From the IMG/VR virus record IMGVR_UViG_3300048861_000257: a stretch of DNA of 63,935 bases. One strand, 5' to 3'. This document shows positions 2,875 through 41,641 of the stretch, one piece after another; positions within the stretch are counted from its first letter, which is position 1, and every line of letters starts with the position of its first letter. The translations under genes were made by a program, and so were the position numbers. The DNA comes from an uncultured virus (IMG/VR IMGVR_UViG_3300048861_000257). Lineage: Duplodnaviria; Heunggongvirae; Uroviricota; Caudoviricetes; Herelleviridae. The notes below the pieces were generated by a model, which was not told the DNA's origin, did no database searches, and saw nothing but the letters and a program-made list of their open reading frames with translations.

Positions 2875-5800
2875 TCAGACCGTGGCCCCGACGAACGCCG
2901 AACCGTCGTCGACGGTGTCGTCGCTGCCGGTGTCGTCGCTGCTGGCGCTGCCGCCGAGCACCTCGGTGGCCTCGTCGGCGTCCAGGCGCGTGAGCGCGTC
3001 GGTGAAGCCGCTGAGCGCGGTGTCGAGGTCGTCGACCTGCTCCTCGGTGTCCTCACCGGCCGGTGTGGCCGCCATCAGGACGGCCAGGGCGGCCTCCACC
3101 TCGTCGTCCGACATGGTGTCGAGGTCGATGCCCTGCTGACGCAGCACGTTCAGCGCGTCGCGCTTCTCGAGCTGGGCCACCAGCATCTCGTAGTCCGCCT
3201 CGATGCGCGGGTTCTTCGCCGTGCCGTAGGAGAGGACGTACATGCTCTTCATCGCCCTGGTGAAGGCGACGTAGTACATGCGCTTGTTGTCCTCCGCCAT
3301 CTGTGGGTCGTACTTGTGCACGACCAGCACGTTGTCGAACTCGAGGCCCTTGGCGCCGTGGATGGTGCTGACGACCAGCTTCGCCTGCGCGTTGAGGTTC
3401 TTCTCCTTGCGCTCCCGGTTCTTCTGGTTCATCAGGGACTGCTTGATGCCGTTGTGACGGATCTCGTAGCCCAGCACGTTGTCCTGCAGTCGCTCGAAGA
3501 ACTCGTCCGCCGTGATCTGACCGGCCTGGTAGAGACCGAGCCAGCCGTTGATCTCGTTGGCACCCGCGATCCACCAGTCCGACGTCATCTTGGCGACGGC
3601 GCCGGCGGCAGCTGCGGCGTTCTTCGTGAGCTGATCCAGGTTGTCGTTGATGCCCTTGTGGATCGCGAAGGCAGCGTCCTTCGGGTCCAGCTGGCACACG
3701 TCGTTCCAGAACAGCTTGATGTACTGCGAGAACACCGTGGTGGGGTAGGTGCGGTCGCTGACGAGGTTGGCGACGTGCTCGCCCGGGAACAGCTCCTGGA
3801 GCTTCTTCTCCATGATGGAGACCTCGGCGCGCGAGTAGGCGAGGAACGCCACCTGCTCGCCCCGTCCCAGCCGCTCGGCGATCCATCGACGAGCGTCGAC
3901 CCCGATGAAGGAGCCGAGCTCCTCCCGGAACTTGGTGAGGTGCTGGAACAGCTTGTAGTTCACCGTCACCTTCTCCTGGAAGGAGGCGGCGGTGGGCACG
4001 GCGAGCGAGTTGGCCTGCAGCCGCAGCTGCGCCGCGGCGTTGGCCTCGATGTCAGCCAGGTGGACGTTCGCGAAATCCAGGATCTCCTGGTTACTCCGGT
4101 AGTTCGTCGTCAGCTGGTAGGTGGCGAAGACGCCGGACTCCTCGAGCGCGTTCAGCGCCTTGGGGTTCGACGCGCGGAACTCGTACAGCGTCTGCGAAGC
4201 GTCGCCGACGATGAACATGTTCTCGCGGTGCTTGGCAACGTACTTGAGCAGGTAGATGAACTCGAAGATCGAGTTGTCCTGCACCTCGTCGATGATGAGG
4301 TACTTCGACTGCACGTTCGCCGGCTCGACCATGCGGTCGATCTGCTGGTAGGCGATGACGATCTCCAGCTCGAGGCAGGTCTGGCCGATGCGGTCGAGCA
4401 TCTCCAGGACCTTGGCTTCGTACTTCTCGATGAACGCGTTGAGCAGCGTCGTCGCACCAGCGGTGAGCTTGTCGACGTCCATCATCACTCGACGGAACGC
4501 CCGTGCGACGTCGTCGCTCGGGTAGAAGATGTCGAGGCTGTTGAGGATCGTGTCGATCGACGACAGCTCGTGCTTCGGGTGGTTCAGCGAGTAGATGTCG
4601 TGGATCATCCGTGCGATGGTCATCGACCGCACACCCGGGTTCCGCTCCGTGATGTTGTCGGCGGCCGCGTTGGTGAAGGACAGCACCGCGATGTCGGACG
4701 CGTTCACGCCCTGCGCCTCGAGGTGCTGGATGCGCCCGAGGATCACGGTGGACTTGCCAGTGCCTGCACCCGCCTGCACGAGCGTCAGCGGCTCCGGGGT
4801 GGAGATCGCTGCGCGCTGCTGCGCCGAGAAGTGGGCCGGCATCGCCCAGGTGCTGTTGCCCGACGGCGGGGCGGAGAGCTGGCCCTTCATCGAGTTGAGG
4901 TGCTCCAGCGTGTGCGACATGAGCAGGTTCAGGTTCTGCTTGCTCAGGTCGTTTGCGACGTCGGGCGAGCACACGCCGTTGATGGTGGCGTGGATCGCAC
5001 GGTACGCCGCCAGCGAGACGTTGTAGGTCTCGAGGTAGCGCAGCTGCATCGCGAGGTGGTGCAGCGTCTGGTCGTCCGGTCGGCCGTTGGCGAACAGCTC
5101 CTGGATGTGGGTGGACAGCACGTCGGCGATACCGTCGCCGGCCCAGGCCTCCGCCAGGCGGCAGATTCGCTCGTGCACGTCGTAGTTCGACATCCACTCG
5201 GCGAGCTCGTCGACGTCCACGAAGACGCCTGCGCTTGCCTGGGCGCCGATGCGGGCCGTGGCGTCCTTAATGAACTCCTCGACGTCGTCGAGCGGCGCGT
5301 AGCTGTAGCGCATCATGGCGAACTCGTGGGTCGCGTCGAACGGCTGGCCGGCGCGCGGCGCCCACGGCGGCGAGGAGACAAGGCGCACTCGCTCGCTGGT
5401 GGATCCTTTGGCCACGACGAACAGGTCCATCCGGTAGAGGATGCTGAGGTCCTTGGAGATCTTGTCGCCGCTCTCGTCCTTCTGGAGCACGATCCCCTGG
5501 GGGGTGAGGTCCAGGAAGACGTCGAAGTCGTACTTCGTCGCATTGGCGGTGATCTCCAGCCGGTCGTTGGCGAACGGCACCGGGTAGGTGAGGCCGCGGG
5601 CCGCGTTGTGCTCGACCGAGTACTGGGCCAGCAGACCCATCGGGATGGTGAAGGTGGTGACGTTACTGCCGGAGCTCTTGCCCTTGGCGAGCACCGCCTT
5701 CGTGGACATGGTGGCCGAGCTGGAGCCCAGCGGGTATCGCCCGGGACGCACGGTCTGGTTCAGCAGGCCCACGTTGTTCCGGCCGTTGCCGGTGAGTTCG

Positions 5801-5883
5801 CTGCTGAAGTACTTCGGGTTGAGCGCCTTGGCGGCCGTGGGAGCCGAGGAAAGCGCGGTGAGGTCATCGAGCTGGATTGGCAT
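2875..5883 (-). CDS. UvrD/REP-like superfamily 1 helicase with long N-terminal extension (~1002 aa; start re-called at MPIQLDD)
   Basis: AGAGTGKST Walker A, LSFTNAAA, IIDEVQD, VGDASQTLYEFR, NYRSNQEI, STIHGAKGLEFD, YVAFTRA. Confidence 0.92.
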   Translation of the reverse strand: MPIQLDDLTALSSAPTAAKALNPKYFSSELTGNGRNNVGLLNQTVRPGRYPLGSSSATMSTKAVLAKGKSSGSNVTTFTIPMGLLAQYSVEHNAARGLTYPVPFANDRLEITANATKYDFDVFLDLTPQGIVLQKDESGDKISKDLSILYRMDLFVVAKGSTSERVRLVSSPPWAPRAGQPFDATHEFAMMRYSYAPLDDVEEFIKDATARIGAQASAGVFVDVDELAEWMSNYDVHERICRLAEAWAGDGIADVLSTHIQELFANGRPDDQTLHHLAMQLRYLETYNVSLAAYRAIHATINGVCSPDVANDLSKQNLNLLMSHTLEHLNSMKGQLSAPPSGNSTWAMPAHFSAQQRAAISTPEPLTLVQAGAGTGKSTVILGRIQHLEAQGVNASDIAVLSFTNAAADNITERNPGVRSMTIARMIHDIYSLNHPKHELSSIDTILNSLDIFYPSDDVARAFRRVMMDVDKLTAGATTLLNAFIEKYEAKVLEMLDRIGQTCLELEIVIAYQQIDRMVEPANVQSKYLIIDEVQDNSIFEFIYLLKYVAKHRENMFIVGDASQTLYEFRASNPKALNALEESGVFATYQLTTNYRSNQEILDFANVHLADIEANAAAQLRLQANSLAVPTAASFQEKVTVNYKLFQHLTKFREELGSFIGVDARRWIAERLGRGEQVAFLAYSRAEVSIMEKKLQELFPGEHVANLVSDRTYPTTVFSQYIKLFWNDVCQLDPKDAAFAIHKGINDNLDQLTKNAAAAAGAVAKMTSDWWIAGANEINGWLGLYQAGQITADEFFERLQDNVLGYEIRHNGIKQSLMNQKNRERKEKNLNAQAKLVVSTIHGAKGLEFDNVLVVHKYDPQMAEDNKRMYYVAFTRAMKSMYVLSYGTAKNPRIEADYEMLVAQLEKRDALNVLRQQGIDLDTMSDDEVEAALAVLMAATPAGEDTEEQVDDLDTALSGFTDALTRLDADEATEVLGGSASSDDTGSDDTVDDGSAFVGATV

Positions 5884-5971
5884 CGTGTGGCTTCTTCCTA
5901 GATTTTCGCCCGAGGGCGGGTGGCTTTGCGGGTGTGGGTGCGCGGGCGGCGAGCTGATGGCCTGCGGGTAG

Positions 5972-6310
5972 TCACTGCTCAGGGCAGTCGGGGCAGGGTG
6001 CAGCGAGCCCGCAGCCGTTGCAGAGCTTCGGCAGGACGGCGTCGACCATGAAGTAGCCGAACGGCATGCCCTGCTGGAGCAGGTCGGCGCACGCTTGGCA
6101 GAGGGGGACATTGGACTGCCAGCGGCCACGCGGGTGCTCGGCGGTGCCATGCACCGGGCTGGTGATGGTCGCGATGACGGCGGCGAAGGGCAGGTCGTCT
6201 GGGTGGTTGGAGTCCAGCGCGCACATGCGGATACGGACCCGTTCCTCGTTGTGCTTCTCTCGACCCCAGGACGAGAGGGTGGAGCCGGACGGATACACGG
6301 TGTCGGCCAT
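5972..6310 (-). CDS. Small Cys-rich putative zinc-binding protein (start MADTVYP)
   Basis: CQAC, CNGC, CPDC motifs; GAGGAGG RBS. Confidence 0.65.
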   Translation of the reverse strand: MADTVYPSGSTLSSWGREKHNEERVRIRMCALDSNHPDDLPFAAVIATITSPVHGTAEHPRGRWQSNVPLCQACADLLQQGMPFGYFMVDAVLPKLCNGCGLAAPCPDCPEQ

Positions 6311-6339
6311 TGGGCCTCCTCTCGTTGGAAGTGGGCGCA

Positions 6340-6373
6340 CGAAGGGGCGAGGGGATTGACCCTCGCCCCTTCG
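6340..6373. terminator. Intergenic hairpin
   Basis: CGAAGGGGCGAGGG / CCCTCGCCCCTTCG perfect 14-bp stem. Confidence 0.6.
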
Positions 6374-6383
6374 GTCGTGGCGG

Positions 6384-8321
6384 CTACTCGTCGAGAACGA
6401 GTTCCAGCTCGTCCTCCTCGTCGACCACCCCGAGTGCGGCGGGCGCCGGGGGGAAGCGCACGGCGATGACCGCGTCCTCGATGAGCCGTCGAGCGGCCTG
6501 CTCTGCCGGGCGAGCACCCTGGTCGGGCAGGAAGGTGTCCTGCACCGTCTGGGCGAGCACCCCGGGGTCGATGGGCACCGGGATGGCGGCCGCGGTGACC
6601 GGGTCGGACTCGACGATGCGGTCGCGCTCTCGCTCGTAGCTGGCCACGAGGATGTCCTCGTAGGTTTCGCGCGAGAGTGGGGCGAACGCGATCAGCTTGG
6701 AGTAGCGGCCGAGGAACTCTGCATCGAAGTCGTCCTTCAGTGCCCTGGCGATCTCCTGACGGCTGAGCATTGAGGCCTGGTCGTCCAGGACGAACCCGAC
6801 CTTCTTCTTGTTCAGCGAGTCTCGGCCCGCGTTCGTGGTCGCGATGATGATCGTCTTCGTGAAGTCGATCACCTTGCCGTTGGCCATCCGCATCCAGCCC
6901 TCGTCGAGGGCTGTCAGGAACAGCCGGTGGATCGTGCGGTCGGCCTTCTCGATCTCGTCCAGCAGGATCACCCGGTACGGGTTCGACTCGAGGGTGTCGA
7001 ACGGCAGCTCCTTGTTGGAGTCGCTGCCGATGTAGCCGGGTCCGGCGCCGATCAGGCGCGAGACGTCGTGCTGGTTGCTGTACTCGCCCATGTTGAGCAT
7101 GATCGGCGGCTGGCTGGTCAGCTCCTGGGCGATGATCTTCGACACTTCGGTCTTGCCGACACCGGAGGGGCCGGCGAACATCCACGCAAGCGGCTTCTTA
7201 CGGGGGAATGCGCCGAGATCGTCACGACGCAGCGCGTCGATCAGGTCGTCGATGATCTCCTCCTGTCCCTTGATGCGGCCGAGCTGCTCGAGCACTCGCG
7301 CCTCGTTGAAGGGCTCCTTGGTGGCGAGGCCTGTCATGAGACGAACAGCGACCGAGCGCAGCTTCGACTCGCTCAGCGGTATGGCGGTCAGGCTCTGCAG
7401 GGCATTGGCGACCGCGGTGTTCTGCGCCGCTGTCGCTTGGGCCAGTGCCGTGCTGTGTGCGACGACGGTCTCGGCCATGGCGCGGTCGAGCAGCGTGAGG
7501 GCGTTGTCCGGCCGGTGCGAGGTTGCCCGCGAGTTCTCGTCGGCGATGACGACGAGCTTGGTGAGCACGTCGTCGGAAACCGTGACCTTCTGCTTGTAGT
7601 GCGCGAGGTACGACGGACGAGCCGAGAAAAGGACCTGGAGAGCCTGCTCCCTGGTGAGCTCGTCGACGATCAGACGGGTGAAGCGGCGCTGGAACGCCGG
7701 GTCATCGTCGAACGACTTCGACTCGTTCATCGTGGTCGATCCAATGACCCGCAGGTCGCCACGGGCGAGTGCGGGCTTCAGGATCTGAGACACCTTCTTG
7801 TAGACCGGGTCGCGGTTGTCCATGAGCTGGTGGATCTCGTCGATGAAGAGGATCGCGTCCTTCTTCTTGTCCGTGGCGAAGTCGATCAGGCCGGCCAGGC
7901 GCTCCTCGAGCTGCCCGACGACGCCGGCGCCGGCGACGATGTTGCTCAGCGGCAGCTCGTAGATCGTGGACTTCGCCAGGCGCGCGGGGATCAGCGGGCT
8001 CTTGATGGCGATGAGGCGCGCGATCTCTTCGGCGATGCGGGTCTTGCCGACGCCGGCCGGGCCGACGAGGAGCGCGTTCGGCTTGTTCTTGCCGATGAGG
8101 ACCGAGATGGTCTGGGCGATGAGCGCATCGCGGAAGAGAGCCGGGTCGGCCTTCTCGAAGCGCTCGTTGTAGTTGATGAGCATGTCCTCGATCCCGGACA
8201 GGCTGCCGGTGATGTTCGACATGGGCGGGAGGCCCGGGATGATGGGTCCTCCGCCGTTGCCGCCGCCTCCACCGTTGCCGGTGTCGTCGTCGTTCGGGTT
8301 CGTGTAGTCGGTGAGTCCCAT
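6384..8321 (-). CDS. ClpA/ClpB-type two-NBD AAA+ ATPase lacking the Clp N-terminal domain
   Basis: KNKPNALLVGPAGVGKT, LFIDEIH, LKPALARG, FQRRF; second NBD FAGPSGVGKTE, RLIGAGPGYIG, LLDEIEKA. Confidence 0.92.
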   Translation of the reverse strand: MGLTDYTNPNDDDTGNGGGGGNGGGPIIPGLPPMSNITGSLSGIEDMLINYNERFEKADPALFRDALIAQTISVLIGKNKPNALLVGPAGVGKTRIAEEIARLIAIKSPLIPARLAKSTIYELPLSNIVAGAGVVGQLEERLAGLIDFATDKKKDAILFIDEIHQLMDNRDPVYKKVSQILKPALARGDLRVIGSTTMNESKSFDDDPAFQRRFTRLIVDELTREQALQVLFSARPSYLAHYKQKVTVSDDVLTKLVVIADENSRATSHRPDNALTLLDRAMAETVVAHSTALAQATAAQNTAVANALQSLTAIPLSESKLRSVAVRLMTGLATKEPFNEARVLEQLGRIKGQEEIIDDLIDALRRDDLGAFPRKKPLAWMFAGPSGVGKTEVSKIIAQELTSQPPIMLNMGEYSNQHDVSRLIGAGPGYIGSDSNKELPFDTLESNPYRVILLDEIEKADRTIHRLFLTALDEGWMRMANGKVIDFTKTIIIATTNAGRDSLNKKKVGFVLDDQASMLSRQEIARALKDDFDAEFLGRYSKLIAFAPLSRETYEDILVASYERERDRIVESDPVTAAAIPVPIDPGVLAQTVQDTFLPDQGARPAEQAARRLIEDAVIAVRFPPAPAALGVVDEEDELELVLDE

Positions 8322-8351
8322 GGCGGGTGATTTCCTCTCGTGAGTGAGACG

Positions 8352-8417
8352 GCGAACGGCCCCGGCTTGCGGCTCTTCCCTCGTGTGAGGTGGGAGCGCG
8401 CGGCCGGGGCCGTTCGC
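8352..8417. terminator. Long intergenic hairpin
   Basis: GCGAACGGCCCCGGC ... GCCGGGGCCGTTCGC inverted repeat. Confidence 0.55.
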
Positions 8418-8445
8418 TAGTCGTCGCCTATGCAGGCGTGCCGGG

Positions 8446-10134
8446 TCAGGCGACCAGGCCGATGAGCTTCTGCGCGATGGCAGGGTCGATGTGGCGCATC
8501 CTCTTCGCGAACTCCTGAGCGGAGCCGACGATCGTGTCCCAGTCCATGCTCGAGCAGGGCGCGTAGTACAGGTTTGCCGGGTGCTGGTCTCGCTGGCTCG
8601 GCGGCCACCACTCGAAGTCAGTGACGACGAGCGAGAGCCGGCGCTTCCGCTTCTCTGAGGCGTTGATGTAGTCCCAGATCTGCTTGTAGTCGGTGCCGCC
8701 GTTGACCTTCGGGATGCGCCGGAACTCCTCCCAGATCCGCGCCACGGACTTGTCCTTGGTGCGGAGGAGGCGCTCCTGCGACATGACGTGGGAGAACGAG
8801 TTGAAGTAGAGGTCGACGTTCATCTTCTTGGCCAGCTTGATCAGCATCATGACCGCCTGCTGGTAGTGCGCCTCTGAGATCGACCCCGAGGTGTCGATGT
8901 AGACGTGCAGATCCGGCAGGTAGTGCGTCGATGTGATGCGACCGGGCCGGTTGTAGTCCATCGGGTCGCGGCGGTTGGCCTTGGCGAAGGTGGTCTTCGT
9001 CTTCTTCAAGATGTTCTGCGAGCGGGCGACTTCCTTCAAGCGCTTGAGCGCGCGGATGAGGCCCTTCTCGATCTCCACCCTGGTCGGCGGCTGCTTCTTG
9101 AAGGTGATCTTCGCGGAGCGACCGAGCTGCGCGGTCTTGTTGCTCTGAGCGTTCGCAGCCTGCGCCGCGGCCTTCGCCATCGCGCGGGGGAGGGCGGTGA
9201 GCTTGCTCAGCGCTTTGTTCGAGATCACCTTCACAGGCGACTTGATCGACGCGTTGATCAGCTGCCACTCGTTGTCGACCTTCTTCGGCGTCGACCGTGC
9301 GTGCGCTTCGACGTTGACGAGGATGATCGTGCGCGGCAAGTAGAGCTCCGACACGACGAACGGCAGGGTGCCCATCACCGGGGTGGCACCCCAGGTCGAG
9401 GCGTTCTGCAGCTGGTACTGCATGAGCATGTGCACGATGACCCTGGCGAACGAATACTCCTCGTTGGCGTCCGAGTCGTCCTTGCGGAGCACGTAGCCCT
9501 CGACCAGCCCCTTGAGGTTGGTCTGGGCGAACTTGCTGAGCAGGTTCGTCGTGTCGCCGGGCAGCACCGCGGCGAGGGTCGCCGTCTGCTGAACGAGCCA
9601 GGCCTTGAAGTCGTCGAAGTCGGTCTCGCTCTGGAACCAGAAGCCGAGCGCCTCGGGCGAGTACGCGTAGGCGACGCTGGCGAAGAACTCACCGTCGTCC
9701 TTAGCGTTGCCTCCGATGAGCTTCTTGGCCGACGGGATGACGTCGTGCATCGCCGTGTAGAGCGTCTTGGGACCGGGGTGCGGCAGCCGGTTGGCGTGGG
9801 CAGCCTGGACGGCGAAGAGCTCGTTGACGAGCAGCGGGGTGGTCTGGTCGTAGTTGACGAGGCCCTGCTGGAGCAGTGACTTCATCTCCTGTTCAGCGGT
9901 CGGGTTGACGTTCGGGCCGACGGCGCTCATGAGGATGCCGAGCACGTCGTCCTTGTTGTACGAGATGCCCTTCTGGTTGGTCACGGAGACCGAACCACCC
10001 TTTGCCATGGGCTTGAAGAGCGGCTTGACGATCGACTTGCGGATCGCGGGCACCGGGTCGTAGCCCCCGTTGATGGGGAGGGTGTGCACCGGGCTGAGGA
10101 TGGCGGGCTTCTGCCCGCTGAGCGTGAGAGACAC
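8446..10134 (-). CDS. vWA-domain protein (MoxR partner)
   Basis: C-terminal MIDAS: YIDTSGSIS, GGTD, VVTD; directly downstream of AAA ATPase. Confidence 0.85.
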   Translation of the reverse strand: MSLTLSGQKPAILSPVHTLPINGGYDPVPAIRKSIVKPLFKPMAKGGSVSVTNQKGISYNKDDVLGILMSAVGPNVNPTAEQEMKSLLQQGLVNYDQTTPLLVNELFAVQAAHANRLPHPGPKTLYTAMHDVIPSAKKLIGGNAKDDGEFFASVAYAYSPEALGFWFQSETDFDDFKAWLVQQTATLAAVLPGDTTNLLSKFAQTNLKGLVEGYVLRKDDSDANEEYSFARVIVHMLMQYQLQNASTWGATPVMGTLPFVVSELYLPRTIILVNVEAHARSTPKKVDNEWQLINASIKSPVKVISNKALSKLTALPRAMAKAAAQAANAQSNKTAQLGRSAKITFKKQPPTRVEIEKGLIRALKRLKEVARSQNILKKTKTTFAKANRRDPMDYNRPGRITSTHYLPDLHVYIDTSGSISEAHYQQAVMMLIKLAKKMNVDLYFNSFSHVMSQERLLRTKDKSVARIWEEFRRIPKVNGGTDYKQIWDYINASEKRKRRLSLVVTDFEWWPPSQRDQHPANLYYAPCSSMDWDTIVGSAQEFAKRMRHIDPAIAQKLIGLVA

Positions 10135-10242
10135 GGCTCCTCCGTTTCAGATGGGGGTGTCGAGGCGGGAATCGACGATGAGGACGATGAAGGGGCCCCA
10201 CCCTGCTGGGCTGCAGAGCGGGACCCCTTGATCAGTGGTTGG

Positions 10243-11481
10243 TCAGGCCGCGAAGGCGCTGAGCATGAGCTTGGTGGACTCGCCCACCGGGGTGCCGGTG
10301 CGGAAGAGTGCCTCCACGTTGCCCTCGTCGAGCATCGACTGGGCGGCAAGCTGGACCAGGAGGCGGTTGTGGTCGCCTTCGATGGTCGTCTGCTGCGCCA
10401 GCTGCTCCACGAGGATCCGGTTGTCCGCGCGCTCGAAGAGCGCGTAGAGCAGCGAGCCGGACTTCTCGTGATCGGTCAGGCCATTGATCAGCGTCTCCAG
10501 GTCGGAGACGGACTTGGCCTGCTTCAGGCTGCCGAAGCAGTTGGGCTTCGGTGCCGTCAGCGACTGCACCTGGGCGGCCGCGCCGGAGTTGATGCCGGTG
10601 GCGATCTCCGAGACGAGGTGGGTGGCGAACTCGGTGTTCCCGATGTGAGCCTCGATCACCTCGTTGAGCAGGGTGGTCTCGCGACCCTCGCTCATGACCT
10701 GCGTCTGCAGGAACTCGGTGAGCCTGGTCTGGTCGACGGCGTTGAGCCAGCGGCTGATCGCGTGGATCGTGCGGGGCGTGGTGAGCTGGAGCATCTCCTC
10801 GCCGGCGTCCAGGAGATCCGCCATGGTCGCCGTGGTGTCGTCATCGTCATCGTCCTTGCCGTCGACCAGGATCGCGCTGGAGACGCCCTTCTGGAAGATC
10901 AGGTGCGGGAGACGCACGAGGACGGACTTGACGTACGGGTTAAGTTCCGCCCCGAGGATGCCGATCAGCGTCTGGGCCTCCGGCTCGACGTGGTAGATCG
11001 AGAATCGGGAGATCGACGCCTCATCGAGCATCGTGACGTTGCCCTTGTCGTTGCCGGCGACCATGATGCGCAGGTTCTTCGGAAGCTGGATCGAGCCGAT
11101 GCTGCGCAGCGTGGGGAGCGAAAGCGCGGCCGAGGTCACGTCGGAGGTGGAGCGGTTGATCTCGTCGAGGAACAGGATGGGCCACTCGCGCGGGTTGTCC
11201 AAGGCGTAGTCGATCGCGTCCTGGATGACCTGGTGCGGGTAGAACTCCTGCTTGTACTTGGTCACGCCGTTGTGCTCGTAGGGCACCAGGCGGGCACCGG
11301 TGAGGTCGGCCTTGTCCGCGAGCTGGTTGCAAGCGAGGACGAAGGCCTTGGTGTCCATGTCCTCGGCGAGCTTCTCGACGAACGAGGACTTGCCGATGCC
11401 GGGCTCGCCCATGAGGGCGGGGACGGCGCCGACTTCGAGGTCGAGCTTGACGATCTCGGTGAGGGTGTCGTTGAACTTCAT
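10243..11481 (-). CDS. MoxR/dynein-like AAA+ ATPase
   Basis: GEPGIGKS, DLTG, LFLDEINRS, AGN, SISRF, TPR sensor. Confidence 0.9.
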   Translation of the reverse strand: MKFNDTLTEIVKLDLEVGAVPALMGEPGIGKSSFVEKLAEDMDTKAFVLACNQLADKADLTGARLVPYEHNGVTKYKQEFYPHQVIQDAIDYALDNPREWPILFLDEINRSTSDVTSAALSLPTLRSIGSIQLPKNLRIMVAGNDKGNVTMLDEASISRFSIYHVEPEAQTLIGILGAELNPYVKSVLVRLPHLIFQKGVSSAILVDGKDDDDDDTTATMADLLDAGEEMLQLTTPRTIHAISRWLNAVDQTRLTEFLQTQVMSEGRETTLLNEVIEAHIGNTEFATHLVSEIATGINSGAAAQVQSLTAPKPNCFGSLKQAKSVSDLETLINGLTDHEKSGSLLYALFERADNRILVEQLAQQTTIEGDHNRLLVQLAAQSMLDEGNVEALFRTGTPVGESTKLMLSAFAA

Positions 11482-11545
11482 GGCGAGATTTCCTTGTCTG
11501 TTCGGCCGGTTGACCGGTGGATGTGGCGGGCTGGCGCAGGCGCGC

Positions 11546-11932: not shown

Positions 11933-11956
11933 AAGCCCTCCAGGGGGTCGAAGGTG

Positions 11957-12100
11957 ACCGGGGGGACTACGTGGGTCCCCCCGGGGAAGGCAACGCCTTC
12001 CGTCAGCGACGTGCCGTGAGCAGGGCCCTGCGCCCCTGCTCCGGTCGTCGCAACCTCACCCGGCTGCGCATTGCGCAGCGACTCTGGCCACAGGCCAGAG
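11957..12100. repeat. Chain of five consecutive short hairpins
   Basis: CCGGGGGGAC/GTCCCCCCGG, GGAAGGC/GCCTTCC, GAGCAGGG/CCCTGCTC, GCTGCGCA/TGCGCAGC, CTCTGGCC/GGCCAGAG. Confidence 0.7.
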
Positions 12101-12114
12101 ATAGGCGTGATTGG

Positions 12115-15821: not shown

Positions 15822-15827
15822 CCGATT

Positions 15828-31922: not shown

Positions 31923-31963
31923 GTGGTGGTTCTCCTTGTGTGATGGCTGCCGTAGCAGTCGAG

Positions 31964-33383: not shown

Positions 33384-34552
33384 CAGAGCCCCAGTCGGGT
33401 GACCGCGTTTCCGCGCAAGGGATCGTGCTCGCGCCGGTAGACCTCGACCGTCGCGACGCTCTTGTGGTCGGTCTGGGGCATGATCTCGAACGGTGAGGCT
33501 CCGGCGCGGAGCGCCTGGGTGACGAAACCGGCGCGCAGGGAGTGGCCGCCGAAGCGGCTCGGGTTCATACCGACGGCGGCGAGGCGACGCTTGACGACGT
33601 CGTTGACGACCTCGCCGCTGACGGCATTGACGCCGATGTGACCGCCACGGCGGACCGGCCGGAACAAGCTGGCTCGCGGGTCCAGCCGAGCGAGCCACGG
33701 CGCAGACCCATGGCAGATGTGCTCGTCCATGCTCGCCTCGCGCAGCAGGCGCATCATGCTGCTGCGCGGAGCGGACGAGTCAACCTCGAGAACGCGGGCC
33801 CAGCGGAGAAACGCGCAGGGCGGGCAGGTCAGCGGGTTGTCGCCGAAAGGCAGTCCTTTCACCGAGCCGCGGCCTTCCTGGTCTGTCTTGGACGTAAGAA
33901 GCCGGACATGGAGTCCGTCCTCGTGGTGGACGCTCACGTCTCCGACGCGTCGACTCGCGAGCTCCGAGCGACGGAACGCGCCGGCGAACCCCATGACCAG
34001 GAGTGCTGCGTCGCGGTGGCCGATGATCCCTGCTGGGTAGGAGTTAATGTCGATCGCGCCCAGAACTCGTTTCAGGTCCGCCAGCAGAAGCGGCGCCATC
34101 CTCCGCGTCGGTCGGGCGTACCGTCGCCGGATGCCGGCGAGCGTGTCCTTCACCTCGCGGCGGGCGCCTGGTGCGACGTGGCCCGCACGTTCATGTCGGG
34201 CGTTGATCGAGGTGACCCACCGTGTGATCGTGCTCGGCGCGTAGGCGGGATCGCCTACGGCGTCCACGAGCGATGCGCGGTCCGTGATGTAGGCGGCCAC
34301 GGTGGAGCCGGACGCGGGCAGCGATACCTGGCCTCGCGTGTCGCACCAGCGTTCGAACGCGGCCCAGTCACTGTCGTATGCCCGCCGCGTGTTCTCGGCG
34401 CTGGCGTCTGCCTGATTCTGTGCGACACCGGCCAGGAGCTCTGCGGGGAGCGGCGCGCTCGTAGGTGCCGGGACGGTACTGCCGGCGTCGACCACCACGA
34501 CCGCGCGAGGGCGCGCGTCATGCTCATAGACGAGCGGATCGGTGACACCCAT
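33383..34552 (-). CDS. Tyrosine recombinase (Cre/Xer-like); start uncertain
   Basis: SAENTRRAYDSDW, RDAALL..FRRSEL, SKTDQ, HSLRAG, QTDH, VYRR catalytic residues. Confidence 0.92.
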   Translation of the reverse strand: MGVTDPLVYEHDARPRAVVVVDAGSTVPAPTSAPLPAELLAGVAQNQADASAENTRRAYDSDWAAFERWCDTRGQVSLPASGSTVAAYITDRASLVDAVGDPAYAPSTITRWVTSINARHERAGHVAPGARREVKDTLAGIRRRYARPTRRMAPLLLADLKRVLGAIDINSYPAGIIGHRDAALLVMGFAGAFRRSELASRRVGDVSVHHEDGLHVRLLTSKTDQEGRGSVKGLPFGDNPLTCPPCAFLRWARVLEVDSSAPRSSMMRLLREASMDEHICHGSAPWLARLDPRASLFRPVRRGGHIGVNAVSGEVVNDVVKRRLAAVGMNPSRFGGHSLRAGFVTQALRAGASPFEIMPQTDHKSVATVEVYRREHDPLRGNAVTRLGL

Positions 34553-34600
34553 GCGTCGATTGTTCCCCTGACCACCGTCATCTCCGCAGGTTCCCGCGCC

Positions 34601-35146
34601 TCACCTGAGCCGGGAATAGCCGCGCACGAAGGGGAAGACCTTGTTGTTCAGGATGGCTGCGATCTTCCGGCGCTGCGGGCCGGTGACCAGATCCTTGTGG
34701 CGCTTGTTGAACATCGACAGCAGGAAGTCGTAGTCGTTCCAGCCGTCGAAGAAGTTCCAGCGGTCCGGAGTGAATACGTCCTGCTCGTACAGCCAGTCGA
34801 TGAGGGATCGCGAGAAGTGCTCGGCCGTCAGGTCGACCGTGCTCCCGGAGGCCAAGGAGACGCGGATGTGGGCGAGGTCTTCCAGGATGCGCGCCTGCCT
34901 GGTCAGATCGAAGCTGTTGAAGTGGGCGATGCAGGAGCTGCCGATCGGGTTCAGGGTGTTCCCTGTGATCTGGTTCTCGATCGAGAAGAGCTTGACCAGG
35001 CCACGCTGGCCGCAGACGCAGATTCCGTCGGCGTCGTCACTGATATCCAGGGCGATCATGATCCACTCGGAGGCCGCTTCCCGCCAGGAAGAGGCTCGCG
35101 AGAGCTCGATCACGGTCTGGATCAGACCTTCGACGTTCGAATCCAT
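34601..35146 (-). CDS. Hypothetical Cys-containing protein (MDSNVEG)
   Basis: CVCG ... IGSSCI putative metal site. Confidence 0.7.
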   Translation of the reverse strand: MDSNVEGLIQTVIELSRASSWREAASEWIMIALDISDDADGICVCGQRGLVKLFSIENQITGNTLNPIGSSCIAHFNSFDLTRQARILEDLAHIRVSLASGSTVDLTAEHFSRSLIDWLYEQDVFTPDRWNFFDGWNDYDFLLSMFNKRHKDLVTGPQRRKIAAILNNKVFPFVRGYSRLR

Positions 35147-35321
35147 GTCTTCTTCTCGCTTTCTGCCCAAAAAGGGGCCCCCGCCGAATAGTCGGGATAG
35201 ATGTGAGTATTGGGTGCGTCGAACCGCCCCCTTGAAGTGAGAGGAGGCTGAGCATTTCGCGCGGTTTTCAGCCATCCCGTGTGATTCACTGATCGCAGGT
35301 CTCAACGCGAGGAGGACGCCG

Positions 35322-35882
35322 GTGGAGGACCTCCTCGCGGTCATCGGCGCCGACCGGGTGCTCGAGCTGGCCTTCAGCAGTCTGGGAGGCGAGCTGGAGG
35401 TCGAGCTGTGGAGCGCGACTCTGAAACAGGTGGAGTTCGACGACGACGACGAGGTGCGCAGGGAGACCGTTCTCGCGACCGCGTCTCTCGCTCGTGTCGA
35501 TCTGTATTGCCAGTGGCTTGAGGCGCTGGATGCGGAGAGTGCGGATCTTGAAGCTGTTGGTGGTGCTTTCATCGATCGAGAGCGGCTCAGTCTGGTTGAC
35601 GAGGAGTCGCTGTTCGCGGAGAGCCTGGTGATCATCGACTACGTCGAGGTACCGGAGGAGCACCGCGGTGCGCGTCTGAGCCACGCATTGGTTCGAGGCG
35701 TCGGCCGCGTCTTCCGCAGCGACATCGTGGCGCTCACGCCGGCTCGGATCAGTCGCGGCGGTTCGGACGACCTGATGGAGGACATCGTGAAGTTCGAAGG
35801 GCTGTGTCGTCACTGGGCGCGAACGGGCTTCGTGCGCGTCCCTGACACCGACGTGATGCTGCTGCCGATGGAACGGCGATAG
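35322..35882 (+). CDS. Hypothetical protein, possible GNAT-like fold
   Basis: IDYVEVPEEHRGARLS ... HWARTGF resemble GNAT motifs; GGAGGA RBS. Confidence 0.6.
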   Translation: MEDLLAVIGADRVLELAFSSLGGELEVELWSATLKQVEFDDDDEVRRETVLATASLARVDLYCQWLEALDAESADLEAVGGAFIDRERLSLVDEESLFAESLVIIDYVEVPEEHRGARLSHALVRGVGRVFRSDIVALTPARISRGGSDDLMEDIVKFEGLCRHWARTGFVRVPDTDVMLLPMERR

Positions 35883-35899
35883 CGCCGAGCCCAGGTGGG

Positions 35900-36360
35900 T
35901 AGGTGTGACGATTCGTGTGACGAGTTTGCCATCGAGCGCACGGTGGCATTCTGGGCGTCTTTTGCCTGGTCAGCTCGGCTTTCGAATGCTCGCGCAGGGG
36001 GATGGGTGTGACGAGTTTGAGATCCGCGACATCGAAACTCGTCACAGCTGTGGCCGCCGTTTTCCTTGATTTCTCAACACATTAGGTAGAGATAAGAGAG
36101 AAATGTGACGGATGTTACGAGTTCTGTTGGAAAGTCCACACATGCGCGCCTGCGCACGCGCACACACAGGGGTTCTCGTGGAAAAGCGTCACATCCGTCA
36201 CATTTCGGCGTTTGTGCTGGTGAGCGCACGAAAACTCGCCGAACATACTCGTCACGCGAATCGTCGCAGCGCCCCTGGGCGCACGCAGGCGACTATCCGA
36301 AATCGCTTCTGACCTGGGGTTTTAGTGGCGTCGATGTGTGACCAATTTCTCGTCACACCA
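35900..36360. repeat. Symmetric TGTGACG/CGTCACA repeat array around an AT-rich patch; candidate replication origin
   Basis: TGTGACG at 35904, 35916, 36007, 36104; CGTCACA at 36040, 36187, 36196, 36351; several inverted-repeat pairs. Confidence 0.75.
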
Positions 36361-36536
36361 GGGTTCCACCAGAAGACAAAGGCCCCCGAGGAGCGGATGC
36401 TCCCCGGGGGCCTGAAGTCGGCTCGTGCGCTGAGGCAACGAGCTCGTGCTGTGCGCGCCACACGATGGTCGACGCGCTCGTTCCTTGCCCAGCCGATGGC
36501 GTGCAAGGGGTCGGGGTGGGCTGCCCACCCCCGGTC

Positions 36537-37451
36537 TTAGCAGTTGTAGGTGCCGCCCATGCCGTTGTCGCAGCGCGGAACGCCACCACCAGAGCCGACG
36601 CCGCCGCCGAGACCTCCGCCGCCACCTCCGCTGGAGGAACCGCCGCCCGAGCTACCGCCAGAGCTACCACCGGAGCTACCGCCCGAGCTACCCGAGCCGG
36701 ATCCGCCAGAGCTGGAGCCGCCGGAACCGCGAGCGGCCTGGCGTGCGGCTTCCGCTGCAGCAGCCTGTCGTGCAGCCTCTGCTGCGGCAGCCTCTTCGGC
36801 CGCCTTGCGTGCAGCTTCCTCGGCGGCCTTTCGGGCAGCCTCTGCGGCGACCTCTGCGGCCACACGAGCGTGTTCGTCGGTCTGGAAGGTGGAGAAGTCG
36901 GCGAGCAGCGCCTTCACGTCGGTCGCGGTCTGGTCGACTGCGGCGTTCGTCTTCTTGGCGGCCGCGGTGATCTTCGCGGCATCCTCGCGTGTCGTGCACT
37001 CGGTCGGGATCTTGAGCTTTGCCACCGCGTCGCGGTCGGCAATCACGGCGTTGATCATCCACGCACCGCTGTGGCGGACGGGCTTGGCGGCGACAGCTGC
37101 CGCTCCGTCCTTGGCGGGGACGGCCTCGACGGCCGCGGTGCCAGGGCGGGCGGCGTAGCTGGTGCTCTTCCACCCCTCGCCTCCGGGCAGGTCGACACTC
37201 TTGACCTTCTCGAGTGCCTTGTCGGCGACGTCGATTGCGGGAGCGATGTTGGCTGTGGCCGCCTTCCCCGCCTTCGTGGCGGCGGTGCACTGGCGTGCAA
37301 TCTCGTCGGCGTTGGCCTTCGCTGCGGTCACGCCGGTCACGGTGATCCCGCCGGCGACGAGCACGACCGCGGCGGCGATGATGGCGATCGCGCGTCGGCT
37401 GAGCCTGCGCTTGGCCGGCTCGGTGTTCTGGGTGCTGATCTCGTCAGCCAT
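36537..37451 (-). CDS. Membrane-anchored Ala-rich coiled-coil protein with Gly/Ser tail
   Basis: N-terminal TM, EAARKAAEE repeats, GGSS repeats, terminal Cys pair. Confidence 0.75.
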   Translation of the reverse strand: MADEISTQNTEPAKRRLSRRAIAIIAAAVVLVAGGITVTGVTAAKANADEIARQCTAATKAGKAATANIAPAIDVADKALEKVKSVDLPGGEGWKSTSYAARPGTAAVEAVPAKDGAAAVAAKPVRHSGAWMINAVIADRDAVAKLKIPTECTTREDAAKITAAAKKTNAAVDQTATDVKALLADFSTFQTDEHARVAAEVAAEAARKAAEEAARKAAEEAAAAEAARQAAAAEAARQAARGSGGSSSGGSGSGSSGGSSGGSSGGSSGGGSSSGGGGGGLGGGVGSGGGVPRCDNGMGGTYNC

Positions 37452-37523
37452 GGCGATCATCTCCTTCTGTCAGGTCGGGTAGTCGGTTCGGGGTTCGGGG
37501 TTCGCGCTAGGGCGCGGTCGGCG

Positions 37524-38093
37524 TTAGGAGCCGAAGCCGGGGCAACTGGTCCAGAGACCTGTACCTGCAGCCTTGGCGTCCTGTTGGGCGCCGGCGTTGA
37601 ACTGGGCCTTCTCGTTGTCCGGGACGTACGCCATGCCCGCGTTGAGCATGACCTTCCCGTAGGGGAGGCGGTTCGAGTCGAGGTAGCCGTGGTGGTCACC
37701 GTCGCTGTCGATGTAGACGCCGTCGGTGACGGTGCCGTACTGGAGAACCCAGCCGGTGCCGATCAGCGTGCTGTTCGCCAGAGCAAGCGCCTGGTCGTAT
37801 CCGCACTGACCCTTGGCCGGGGTGAGGATGTCGTTGACGTGGACGGTGAAGTCCTTGCCGTACAGCGTGTCGGTCTTGTCGGCCGGTGTCATGATGATGG
37901 TCACGGGGTCGATGACCTTCAGCGCGCGCACGCGACGCTGCTCAGGCTGAGTCTGGGTCGTCGGAGCAGCACTCGTGGTGCCGCTGTCGGCGGCGGCCTG
38001 CGATCCTTCGCTCGGTCCGCTGACGCAACCTGCGAGCATGACGACCACGATGCCGCTGAGCGCGGCGAGGCTGGCCTTCTGTGCGAGTTTCAT
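37524..38093 (-). CDS. Thermonuclease (SNase)-fold lipoprotein, catalytic motifs degenerate
   Basis: LAGC lipobox; KVIDPVT, CGYDQA, MLNAGMA, AQQDAKAAGTGLWTSC. Confidence 0.75.
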   Translation of the reverse strand: MKLAQKASLAALSGIVVVMLAGCVSGPSEGSQAAADSGTTSAAPTTQTQPEQRRVRALKVIDPVTIIMTPADKTDTLYGKDFTVHVNDILTPAKGQCGYDQALALANSTLIGTGWVLQYGTVTDGVYIDSDGDHHGYLDSNRLPYGKVMLNAGMAYVPDNEKAQFNAGAQQDAKAAGTGLWTSCPGFGS

Positions 38094-38297
38094 GGTGGTT
38101 CTAATCTCCCCTGGATGGCACGAATCCCGTGCTTTACGAGCAATGTCGTGCGCTCACCATCATGCCTGATGGCAACTCCGGCACACGGCTCCGGCACCCC
38201 TATTGGGGGTTAGAAGAAGTGCGCGAGGGGCTCACGCGATGGAGCCCCTCGCGGGGTACCCGGGCAGCCTCCGCTCAGGGAGGCTCGGGGAGTCAGT

Positions 38298-38672
38298 TCA
38301 TCGTCCGCGGACGATGGTGCTGGAGGCGGGCGCAGGCTTGGCTGTGAACGCGACGCTGGGGCCGGCCGCGGGTCGCGGTGCCTCGATCACGTACAGGACG
38401 TCCAGGCCGTAGCGGACGTAGTTGTCCATCTTCACCTGGTACTCGCGCAGAGTCAGAGAGCTGTAGCCGGGGATCTCGCCCATCTGGTCGAAGAATCGGC
38501 GCGCCTTGCTCTCGTACTCCGCCTTGGAGCGGCCCTCGAACTTGAAGCGGTGGTAGAACCCGCTCTCGGTCGAGGGGATGCCGCCGGGCGTGACGGTCAC
38601 GCGATCGACATCCATCGGGCGAGGAGCCATTAGCTCACCGCCAGCGTTGTAGAAAGTCGGGCTGATCTTCAT
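38298..38672 (-). CDS. Hypothetical protein (MKISPTF)
   Basis: AAGGAGGTG RBS. Confidence 0.65.
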   Translation of the reverse strand: MKISPTFYNAGGELMAPRPMDVDRVTVTPGGIPSTESGFYHRFKFEGRSKAEYESKARRFFDQMGEIPGYSSLTLREYQVKMDNYVRYGLDVLYVIEAPRPAAGPSVAFTAKPAPASSTIVRGR

Positions 38673-38891
38673 GGCTCTCACCTCCTTCACCTATCAAAAA
38701 TCGGTGAGGAGACCCTATCTCAGTCCTTCTGGAATGCCTCCTCAACCACCCACCCGGGTGACCGGACCACCCGGTCACCCCACCACGCTCTTTCAGGCGA
38801 CAGGAGGGCGACCCGGCATTGCCGGTCGCTCCTTCCTGCCGCCTGGTGTCAGGACACAATCGCGCGTGCGTCAGCACGCGACCATTGCCCG

Positions 38892-39683
38892 TCAGGGTGC
38901 GACGTGAGTCCTCTCGTCCTCACGCTGCTCTGCCGCGTAGCGGCCGGGGGTGAGGGCATAGAGGAGCAGCGCCGCGGCCAGCAGAAGGCATGCGATGAAC
39001 GCGGGATGAGCCACGACTTGCACGAGCTCGGCTGGCACGACGGTGGAGGCGACGTTGAACAGCACGTGCATGAGCACCACCTGCCAGAGTCGCTGGGTTG
39101 CCTCGTAGACGAACGCGAGGAGGATGCCGAGGGGCACCGTCAGCACGATCTGGACGAGGTTCCCATGGAGGATCGCGAACACCGAGGCGGTCACGAACGC
39201 CGAGGCGAGCGGCGGCCAGTGGCGGCGGAGGGCTGGGTAGGCGATGCCCCGGATCAGCGACTCCTCGCCGATCGGGGCGAGGATCAACGCAGTGACCAGG
39301 AGCAGCCACGCAGGCGACTGGTCCCTCGCGGTGTTGACGGCATCGAAACCTTCGGAGCCAAAGGTGTCGTAGATCCAAATGGCAGCTGCCTGACCGGCGA
39401 CCCAGCAGACGATCAGCGCCGACGCGGCCGCGACCCAGAAGCTCCCGGTCCGGGCGCGCGGCTGGGGCGCCGGAGCCCGCATCGTCCCAGTGGACCGCCG
39501 TCGGTACCCGAGGGCGAGCACGAGGGCGATCAGGTCGGATGCGGCAGCTCCGGCGATGGCGTCACCGGTGAGGATCGTGACCAGGAGGGCAACCGCCACG
39601 TACGCAGCGAGTGCCCCTCCCACGATCACGATCGTCTTGCCCCAGGCGAGCGCGGCCGGCGACAACGAGAGGCGGCTCTTCAT
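38892..39683 (-). CDS. CPBP (CAAX/Abi) family intramembrane metalloprotease
   Basis: APIGEESLIRG, FAILH, HVLFN; multiple TM helices. Confidence 0.9.
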   Translation of the reverse strand: MKSRLSLSPAALAWGKTIVIVGGALAAYVAVALLVTILTGDAIAGAAASDLIALVLALGYRRRSTGTMRAPAPQPRARTGSFWVAAASALIVCWVAGQAAAIWIYDTFGSEGFDAVNTARDQSPAWLLLVTALILAPIGEESLIRGIAYPALRRHWPPLASAFVTASVFAILHGNLVQIVLTVPLGILLAFVYEATQRLWQVVLMHVLFNVASTVVPAELVQVVAHPAFIACLLLAAALLLYALTPGRYAAEQREDERTHVAP

Positions 39684-41641
39684 CAGAATCGCTCCTCGTC
39701 GTCATCCTCGAGACCGGTGACCGAGAGCGGCTCGATCATCTGGTCGATCACGGCCTGCGGCGAGGCCACGCCGCGGAACACGTTGACCGACAGTGTGACA
39801 TGCATCCGCACCGTGCTCTCGCCCGGGATCGGACTCGCGGCCAGATCCTTGAGATCCTGGAGCCGGTCTGCCTGGTTCCACCAGAGCACCTTCATGCCGA
39901 TCGGGAGGATCAGGCGGAGGTGCTGGTCGTCGCTGCCGAGGGTCTGGATGGAGCACCGCGACAGGTCGACCGCGAACTCGATCACAGGGCGCTCGAAGCC
40001 ATGACCGAAGGGCGCCAGCGAGTTGATCCCCTCGGTGAGGTCGAGCAGCTCGTCGATGTCGGCCAGGTCGGCGTCGGAATCCTCCACAGGCCCGAGCACG
40101 AGGTCGGCGCCATGACTGGCCTCGAGCTCGCCGCTGAGAAGCATCCGGGCGTGGATGCTCTCCGCCTGGGCCTGCATCTCCTCCGCGAACCGGGTGAGGT
40201 CGGCGAGGTTGGCCGTCCGGACACCGCAGGCGTTCTCGTGTCCGACCGCCGTGAAGCCCAGCGGCGTCATCGTGGTGATGATCGGGAACCAGAACGGTGA
40301 GCGTGCCGAGCCCCCGATCGGCTCCGTATCGTCGGCGGGACGCCGGACCACCACGGTGGGTCGACCGGTGTCGCGCGAGACCGCGGAGGCGATGAGTCCG
40401 AGCATCCCGGTCGGGGCGTCGGTGAAGTAGATGCCGTAGTCGCCGAGCGGCTGCTCCTCCTCCCAGAGCTTCGCGAGGTACTCCTGGCTCAGCTCCTTGC
40501 GCAGCTCGTTGATGTCGATGATCGTCTTGGCGTGCTCGTACTTCTGCGCGGCCGTCGCCGCGGTGAACACCCCGAAGGCGTCGTGCATCGAGCCGCCGAC
40601 GCGGCGGATCGCGTTGAAGGCCGGTGCCAGGTAGAACGCGTAGAACTCCTCATTCAGGTCCGCAATCGAGCGCAGCTTGCCGTTGGCGAACGCAGGCTCC
40701 CCGCGCCAGTCGAGCTTCTGCTCGCCGTTTTCGTCCAGCAGCGGCTTCCGGTGCTCCTTGAACGCCTTCATCATCAGGGCGAAGCCTTCGAAGACGGAGA
40801 CGTAGGCCGGGTGGTGCGGCTTGCTACGCAGCAGCATCATCAGCGTGCTGTTCTCGATGTCATACCGGGTGACCAGGTCCTCGCCCGGGATCTGGACGTA
40901 GAGCAACCGGGCCACCGAGAGTGAGTCGCGCACCATCTTCCGGTTCTCGAAGTAGAGCGGCATGACGTCCGAGACGGTGCCGATGCCAGCGAACAGCTTC
41001 AGCATCGAGATCTCGGACCGCTTCTCCGGCGCGTAGCGGTCGGCATAGGCGGTGAGGACCTGGTGGAGGACGTACGCTCCGCAGATTCCCTGGTGCTTGT
41101 AGGTCTCCGTGATCCGAACGGGGTTCACGGCAATGTCTGCGACGCTGCCCGGCGACAGCTCCATGTGATGGTCCGTGACCAGAGTGATGAACCCGAGGTT
41201 CCGGGCCTCCTGGATGCCCTCGTTGCTGTTGATCCCCCCGTCGCACGTGAGGATCGCACGCGCCGCCGGGAACTGGGCGCGCAGCTCGCGGACCGCTTCC
41301 ACCGTGATGTCGTGGCCCCGGCGGTAGTCAGGGACGTAGAGCTGAGCGTTGAAGCCCAGTTCATTGAGGCCGGCCCAGCCGAGGACACCGGAGGTGATCC
41401 CGTCCATGTCGAAGTCCGGGAGGACCACGATCTGCTCGCCGGCCAGCTTGATCCGGTGGAGCTCGGCGGCCATGCGGTCGACGTCGTGGAGCTCGTCGTG
41501 GGACGGGTCGTTGATGGTCATCAGGTACTGGTCCGTCCAACCCCGCTTCCGGCAGAGGAGGCTGAACAGGGACTCGTCGCGGAACTCCCCGATCGGAGGG
41601 CTGCCGTTGGTGGTGGTGAGGGTGTTTCCGGGGTCGTTCAT
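39683..41641 (-). CDS. recJ: RecJ-like DHH-family ssDNA exonuclease
   Basis: DFDMDGITS, TCDGGI, VTDHH, GTVSDVMPL, GSARS, GHENACG. Confidence 0.88.
   Translation of the reverse strand: MNDPGNTLTTTNGSPPIGEFRDESLFSLLCRKRGWTDQYLMTINDPSHDELHDVDRMAAELHRIKLAGEQIVVLPDFDMDGITSGVLGWAGLNELGFNAQLYVPDYRRGHDITVEAVRELRAQFPAARAILTCDGGINSNEGIQEARNLGFITLVTDHHMELSPGSVADIAVNPVRITETYKHQGICGAYVLHQVLTAYADRYAPEKRSEISMLKLFAGIGTVSDVMPLYFENRKMVRDSLSVARLLYVQIPGEDLVTRYDIENSTLMMLLRSKPHHPAYVSVFEGFALMMKAFKEHRKPLLDENGEQKLDWRGEPAFANGKLRSIADLNEEFYAFYLAPAFNAIRRVGGSMHDAFGVFTAATAAQKYEHAKTIIDINELRKELSQEYLAKLWEEEQPLGDYGIYFTDAPTGMLGLIASAVSRDTGRPTVVVRRPADDTEPIGGSARSPFWFPIITTMTPLGFTAVGHENACGVRTANLADLTRFAEEMQAQAESIHARMLLSGELEASHGADLVLGPVEDSDADLADIDELLDLTEGINSLAPFGHGFERPVIEFAVDLSRCSIQTLGSDDQHLRLILPIGMKVLWWNQADRLQDLKDLAASPIPGESTVRMHVTLSVNVFRGVASPQAVIDQMIEPLSVTGLEDDDEERF

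Follow-up and report, generated by a model that had tools for sequence, protein, structure and literature searches.

The 63,935-nt stretch analysed here (hereafter the window, positions 1..63935) corresponds to positions 62001–125935 of a single 125,935-bp record (GC 0.658), IMG/VR IMGVR_UViG_3300048861_000257, classified there as a provirus with a CheckV completeness of 100. It lies entirely inside one mobile element, and the record very probably represents about two thirds of a conjugative plasmid of approximately 190 kb from a Microbacteriaceae-like soil actinobacterium. In the family to which it belongs, a relaxase and a coupling protein are combined with what is likely a phage-style replication kit and, likely, an RNA polymerase encoded by the element itself; the family likely includes CGP3, an element integrated in Corynebacterium glutamicum ATCC 13032. 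A conjugative plasmid is the most likely reading because transfer genes are present and recognisable virus-particle genes are absent. The transfer module and the RNA polymerase gene are located upstream of the window on the same record, where relaxase, coupling-protein and VirB4-like genes were found and no recognisable virion gene was seen; these genes support the proposal, made in an initial annotation of the window, of a giant self-replicating and probably conjugative actinobacterial element. The lack of virion genes noted there for the 64 kb extends to the whole record: none of its 129 genes, called with a codon model, matched head, portal or terminase families in Pfam and PHROG searches (best five PHROG families per protein).

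A 189,443-bp contig contains exact matches to both the polymerase (g031) and the VirB4-like protein (g015), and the record is therefore probably a trimmed part of a larger contig. Since the closest polymerases (80–88% identical) come from Microbacteriaceae genera, several of them on contigs of 173–207 kb, a Microbacteriaceae-like host and a free-plasmid state are suggested. Neither terminal repeats nor tRNA genes were found on the 125,935-bp record, no attachment (att) repeats or integrase were seen at its ends, and the element appears to be a free plasmid. In a search of sequencing runs, the best DNA match was a soil metagenome that may be the source, one contig of which extends about 1.95 kb beyond the end of the window; no RNA run with this element was listed.

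Core gene order and likeness to CGP3

On the minus strand of the window, the genes run in the order recJ, D5 helicase, PolB, endonuclease/SNF2, MoxR, vWA, Clp and SF1 helicase, with the LysM gene on the opposite strand. This order, read from the sequence in the initial annotation, was confirmed by Pfam and PHROG searches, the vWA match being weak and PolB being recognised through phrog_1252 together with exonuclease and polymerase motifs identified by eye; the PolB-like protein had no Pfam match, and a PDB sequence search with it gave nothing meaningful. Of the "VRR-NUC/SNF2" assignment, the endonuclease (phrog_93) and SNF2 were borne out, while the label "VRR-NUC" found no Pfam match. The Clp, vWA-like and MoxR genes occur in the same order in plasmid pGKT2 and in the relative genomes G001, G003 and G005, and thus form a conserved triad within the replication module; a role in replisome assembly would be a guess. 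Gene g064, without a match in Pfam or PHROG, is a likely primase-polymerase, and for g065, without any family match, a role in single-stranded DNA binding could be guessed. A tandem tyrosine-recombinase-like pair presumably serves dimer resolution. A reading of the UvrD gene as a 1,436-aa open reading frame (ORF) was dropped, as it overlaps the Clp gene; the UvrD start is near 5883.

The CGP3 gene order given in the initial annotation agrees with the published table, which lists cg1956 (recJ), cg1959 (priP), cg1963 (superfamily II helicase), cg1974 (LysM), cg1980 (MoxR), cg1982 (Clp ATPase) and cg1985 (superfamily I helicase). All seven annotated genes follow the same order as in the element, which by arithmetic (2/7!) corresponds to 1 in 2,520, and the hypothetical genes cg1960 and cg1981 occupy the PolB and vWA slots. 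After this core, the table lists a plasmid-type gene, a second Clp ATPase, a PXO2.09-like gene and a topoisomerase. Fragments from the CgpS binding table, translated by eye, resemble ten genes of the record in colinear order, namely g083 (priP), g031 (cg1995), g030, g029, g028, g025, g020, g018, g017 and g013; 46 of 60 residues of the CGP3 virD4 fragment are identical to g030 (by eye). As in the element, the LysM, polymerase and transfer gene fragments lie on the strand opposite priP. For cg2018, cg2032 and cg2062, no clear match was found by eye. In the fragment for cg2005–cg2007 (PMC5137423 supplement 3, peak 58), the virD4 frame appears to stop just before the conserved stretch that follows Walker A (by eye), and CGP3 may therefore be transfer-defective.

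These comparisons with CGP3 are published fragments matched by eye, annotations and a scan of control genomes rather than computed alignments. Among the 14 control genomes, C. glutamicum was the only one with a MobL match over the cut-off, and it also matched VirD4-like, lysozyme2, D5 and PolB families and none of four virion families; since the control gives neither strain nor position, we infer rather than observe that these matches lie in CGP3. The likeness might be generic, reflecting common replication genes in a similar order rather than one family, given that mobile DNA often carries D5, SNF2, RecJ and AAA genes and that CGP3 was compared without program alignment. However, order, strand and fragment likeness reach ten genes, including g017, g018, g020, g025 and g029, which have no family, and the rare polymerase, and MobL marks C. 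glutamicum alone among the controls; we consider a generic likeness extremely improbable.

The resemblance further comprises the similar size of CGP3 (187 kb), the polymerase, virD4, Clp, hydrolase region, PXO2.09-like gene and topoisomerase on the opposite strand, and the actin-like and Lsr2 genes of G005, which parallel AlpC and CgpS. In contrast to the element studied here, which appears to be free, CGP3 sits in the chromosome between att sites; the CglI restriction system is also encoded on it.

Transfer genes, likely RNA polymerase and relatives

The MobL relaxase matched PF18555 with 262.9 bits (cut-off 28.5; E 6e-78), and its HxH motif is visible. The cell-wall hydrolase and the transmembrane proteins of g014–g022 share one operon, in which VirB3, VirB6 and VirB8 could be assigned by position. 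No match to g015 was found in Pfam and NCBIfam, a PDB sequence search gave nothing meaningful, and an alignment to VirD4 failed to join the two. Among its Atlas neighbours, those with names belong to VirB4-type families (0.96), and one homologue, 64% identical, carries the name PXO2.09, which is also the annotation of CGP3 cg2062. If g015 is the VirB4 of the channel, it likely acts as a scaffold without ATPase activity. The antigen I/II domains of the adhesin reported in the initial annotation are genuine.

The protein g031 combines both barrels in one chain and shows a beta-type basic motif as well as the catalytic aspartate triad DFDGD. In PDB, a profile built from 21 homologues matched the beta' active-site region (E 2e-9). 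It is likely the element's own RNA polymerase and an orthologue of NCgl1702. NCgl1702-like two-barrel polymerases (PMC2919709; PMC7824862) have the same architecture: a single chain with a beta-like followed by a beta'-like barrel, DFDGD, switch-2 and funnel segments; the latter paper assigns these enzymes to "mobile elements". In the published active-site segment of NCgl1702, 33 of 46 residues are identical to g031 (by eye). According to the literature, NCgl1703 is the CglI methylase cg1996, inside CGP3, so that NCgl1702 is its neighbour, likely cg1995. NCgl1702 itself was absent from the 266 proteins retrieved, the best of which shared 34 of 39 motif residues.

The polymerase was detected in 13 of 72,556 plasmid records and in none of 50,697 phage records, and PolB in three plasmid and no phage records. 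The three full-length carriers, all complete circular plasmids, come from Streptomyces, Rhodococcus and Gordonia and have the transfer block in common: Streptomyces NZ_CP109461, pGS01 (NZ_CP140265) and pGKT2 (Gordonia sp. KTR9, NC_018580). They share the mobL-Clp-virD4-polymerase block, PolB and the VirB4-like gene, but are about 27–64% identical by gene, carry other cargo and lack the operator described below; databases annotate their polymerase and PolB as hypothetical. Among them, the full core order was checked in pGKT2, a complete circle. Of the 129 genes, 27 are present there, and the two core modules keep their order (the comparison covered all but about 4 kb of the plasmid). Together with the ten genes colinear with CGP3 fragments, this means that both checks proposed in the initial annotation, synteny with CGP3 and large plasmids and the gene content of the flank, favour its reading. 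According to a review, pGKT2 moved between genera in the laboratory, to strains of three other species of Gordonia, Rhodococcus and Nocardia.

A genome scan with the polymerase found 91 relatives, of which 77 loci were kept; these belong to 76 actinobacterial genomes, one locus (L014) being dropped from genome counts as the second of one genome. In 75 of the 77 loci the polymerase is immediately preceded by VirD4 on its own strand, the two misses being 5.5-kb contigs; MobL was matched in all 76 genomes, the C-terminal half of PolB in 67. None of the 77 loci is from Corynebacterium, and two genus searches (3 and 1 genomes) gave no match; a published cgpS primer likewise had no match in the genome and viral contig collections searched. 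The family is sporadic, with no polymerase in 400 other genomes sampled from the order of G001, and a viral contig search returned one relative only.

The nearest full-length relative, contig C8 of G005 (199,595 bp), holds 80 of the 129 genes, nearly all in order, and starts and ends in the same tandem repeat, as expected of a circle. Among the 70 ORFs taken from its additional third are genes for actin-like, Lsr2, sortase, type IV pilus, RepA_C and ParA proteins. The pilus cluster (L095:3163-7654; C8 163–168 kb) encodes two ATPases, a platform protein and a prepilin peptidase. Two other copies are integrated in chromosomes. That of G001 (232.5 kb, C1 1,866,677–2,099,271) is flanked by 99-bp repeats, which are copies of the end of an Fe-S assembly gene, and has a weak tyrosine-integrase match; that of G003 (about 191 kb, C1 about 2,280,500–2,471,900) splits comM, has an internal serine recombinase, and showed no att repeat around it. 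Both were opened between the orthologues of g016 and g017, a cargo hot spot. A tRNA-Trp gene beside g016 in G001 was rejected as an att site once the 99-bp repeat had been found.

Candidate origin and operator

Between recJ and the D5 gene lies a candidate replication origin, an AT-rich core with the lowest GC of the record flanked by hexamers, eight of which fall in one 400-bp bin of 314, the next best bin holding four. The same anatomy with other hexamers is found between these genes in G005, G001 and G003, pGKT2 being a weak case, and the fragment upstream of CGP3 priP contains repeated GTAACG. We take the region at 35,890–36,370 to resemble origins of D5/P4-type replicons. The hairpin GCGAAGC is not enriched on this DNA: of its 43 copies, 7 fall between genes, and intergenic sequence makes up 12% of the DNA.

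The 12-bp palindrome CTCRTWWAYGAG occurs at 21 sites with at most one mismatch, 17 of them intergenic versus a mean of 0.17 (maximum 2) in 100 shuffles. Sites are found ahead of transfer genes and of the polymerase, g065, recJ and second-helicase genes, several following a TAnnnT box. In G005, which provides an independent check since the palindrome was spotted by eye on the present DNA, it is kept at 10 of 14 orthologous places; in distant relatives it is not clear.

Alternatives, mechanism and significance

Several observations weigh against a conjugative plasmid. About a third of the 189-kb source contig (approximately 63 kb) lies outside the sequence examined. Gene g019 matches tail and tape-measure PHROGs through its lysozyme domain (the sole tail-category matches among the best five families per protein), g017 weakly matches Holin-X, and virion proteins too divergent for Pfam or PHROG to recognise are conceivable. 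A phage-plasmid or jumbo prophage whose virion genes have diverged in this way, or reside in the remaining third, would also be in keeping with the IMG/VR class and completeness, with the phage-like replication genes, and with the literature on CGP3, which describes a cryptic prophage able to excise and to replicate in circular form, and reports circular DNA only. Nevertheless, two terminase families, capsid and portal each had no match in five genomes and records, versus matches in 3–5 of the 14 controls; terminase, portal and capsid were not found in the three complete plasmids, nor virion families in the 70 ORFs lying wholly within the extra third of G005. Neither the polymerase nor PolB occurs in a phage record, and the large unannotated conserved genes belong to the relaxase-VirD4 operon, several encoding membrane proteins. 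We regard a phage origin of this kind as very unlikely.

A second group of adverse points concerns the channel. Walker A is absent from g015, from the consensus of 82 sequences and from the Gordonia, Staphylococcus and Enterococcus homologues; searches of the record and of the three complete plasmids yielded neither a second VirB4 nor any canonical VirB4 family. PLSDB types these plasmids as "mobilizable" or "non-mobilizable", pGKT2 being mobilizable with a MOBP relaxase, and the transfer of pGKT2 may therefore have been helped. The element could thus be self-replicating and merely mobilizable, with a genuine relaxase and coupling protein, a defective channel and the need for a helper plasmid. 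However, the strong conservation of g015, with 901 homologues and a family present on 224 records of plasmids (some from Enterococcus, Lactiplantibacillus, Bacillus and Staphylococcus), does not fit decay, and the order of the entire membrane operon is preserved across distant actinobacterial genera; this alternative seems unlikely. The remaining adverse points are that CTCRTWWAYGAG was spotted on the same DNA used for counting, that it precedes the polymerase in just 3 of 75 loci, that the PolB match is absent from 9 of 76 genomes, and that, given RepA_C and ParA in G005, the replisome may not be the maintenance replicon.

The element resembles a Gram-positive conjugative plasmid or integrative and conjugative element (ICE), and no terminase, portal or major capsid gene marking a phage was found on the parts examined. 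It would be a variant rather than a plain representative, because it has its own replisome and polymerase and a VirB4 without Walker A; canonical Gram-positive conjugative systems have a VirB4 with this motif. The relaxase, coupling protein, hydrolase and adhesin are shared with Gram-positive MOB_L systems, presumably of the pLS20 type. On pAYP1020, virD4, the VirB4-like gene and a polymerase homologue stand side by side, and plasmids of Staphylococcus, Enterococcus and Lactococcus share the VirB4-like gene, with no PolB match there.

For replication, we consider it probable that the D5 helicase would open the iteron origin located between recJ and its own gene, the primase-polymerase would prime and PolB extend, while RecJ, UvrD and the topoisomerase would process forks, the circle being amplified on induction. 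Steady maintenance may rely on a Rep/Par module in the remaining third, as in G005. It is reasonably likely that a single element-encoded repressor bound at the palindrome represses the transfer genes, the polymerase, recJ and the second helicase. On release, the adhesin would grip the mate, the hydrolase would open the wall, MobL would nick, and VirD4 would pump the strand through a Gram-positive type IV channel in which VirB4 likely serves as a scaffold without ATPase activity; self-transfer along these lines has a good likelihood. The polymerase, fixed directly behind virD4, may act in transfer, or in establishing the element in the recipient, rather than transcribe the element at large, which we would put slightly below an even call; this is the weakest step of the mechanism, and the alternative is a late-gene polymerase.

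More tentatively, and short of an even call, one could propose that CGP3 is not a decayed phage but an integrated member of a widespread unnamed family of actinobacterial conjugative replicons of about 170–640 kb. These would bring their own replisome and an RNA polymerase of one chain that works for conjugation alone, and would transfer through a type IV channel in which VirB4 no longer has its ATPase motif. A literature search covering titles and the openings of abstracts, with subscription papers on CGP3 and pGKT2 outside its scope, gave, among the papers listed, no description of such a family and none calling CGP3 conjugative; PMC5467207 contains no mention of it. Other papers were drawn on (PMC4446434, PMC4267653, PMC10023795, PMC5640721, PMC5137423).

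Prophage induction, xenogeneic silencing (CgpS) and actin encoded by a phage (AlpC) are studied with CGP3 as a model, and if it is conjugative, these results concern ICE biology. An article by Iyer and Aravind from 2012 reportedly treats polymerases of the NCgl1702 type carried by mobile elements, and the genes next to them may already be noted there. The host element and role of NCgl1702 have been unknown since it was first noted, and its place behind virD4, together with the culturable and transferable pGKT2, makes its function testable. The family, which is likely a vehicle for large cargo between soil actinobacteria, Streptomyces among them, is missed by current tools, appearing as a complete provirus in IMG/VR and as non-mobilizable or merely mobilizable in PLSDB.

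Table 1. Features of the element. Window numbering starts at contig position 62001; positions on the record upstream of the window are marked "contig".
Feature	Position	Strand	Evidence or remark
Second D5 helicase, g005	contig 4998-6749	+	
Type IA topoisomerase, g013	contig 12500-14734	+	Pfam
Membrane/VirB4-like genes, g014-g017	contig 14958-22067	+	
VirB4-like, g015	contig 15842-18115	+	
Lysozyme/CHAP hydrolase, g019 (in g018-g021)	contig 23608-25419	+	Lysozyme2, weak CHAP
MobL relaxase, g024	contig 28831-31053	+	PF18555
Clp ATPase, g028	contig 32894-34669	+	
g029	contig 34763-37042	+	
VirD4 coupling protein, g030	contig 37164-41183	+	PF02534, PF12696 over cut-off
Two-barrel RNA polymerase, g031 (1,850 aa)	contig 41317-46869	+	Rpb2_6, Rpb1_2
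CTCRTWWAYGAG operator candidates	contig 4090-49218		15 sites, L001-L003
PemK/MazF-like toxin, likely addiction module	836..1510	-	PF02452
UvrD-type SF1 helicase	2875..5883	-	Pfam; start from gene calling
Clp ATPase	6384-8321	-	Pfam
vWA-like protein	8446-10134	-	Weak Pfam, E 0.004, under cut-off
MoxR-type ATPase (AAA_5)	10243-11481	-	Pfam
g064, likely primase-polymerase	13114..14088	-	Atlas neighbours NrS1-like and Prim-Pol at 0.96
g065, conserved protein under operator	14180..15196	-	No family match; kept in relatives
CTCRTWWAYGAG operator candidate	15293..15304	.	Between g065 and LysM gene
LysM protein, membrane-anchored	15366..15821	+	Pfam; opposite strand, as CGP3 cg1974
SNF2 helicase	16084-17574	-	Pfam/PHROG
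Small endonuclease	18274-18591	-	phrog_93, E 1e-28; no Pfam match
PolB-like (family-B-like) DNA polymerase	22509..25733	-	phrog_1252 DNA polymerase, E 1e-22
D5/P4-type helicase, priP counterpart	26921..28558	-	Pfam DUF5906, D5_N, Pox_D5; priP fragment by eye
Tyrosine-recombinase-like pair, Xer-like	32463..34552	-	Same pair in pGKT2, pGS01
Candidate replication origin	35890..36370	.	Nine TGTGAC/GTGACG hexamers
RecJ exonuclease	39683..41641	-	Pfam DHH, RecJ_OB
CTCRTWWAYGAG operator candidate	41712..41723	.	Upstream of recJ
MgsA/RarA ATPase	43191..44528	-	Pfam
Antigen I/II-type surface adhesin	56717..61384	+	PF17998, PF16364; C-terminal transmembrane segment

No Rfam match was found in the window or in loci L001–L004, which includes the HD/RelA-SpoT-like hydrolase gene at 54252-55423 of the window. 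The second D5 helicase (L001:4400-6749) has its own GTACCTG repeat cluster and adjoins a 631-aa AEP/HTH-like gene; this region is possibly a second replicon or a captured satellite. A UmuC/UmuD-like error-prone polymerase pair is located at L004:5447-7151, and such a pair is present elsewhere in G005 and G003 as well.

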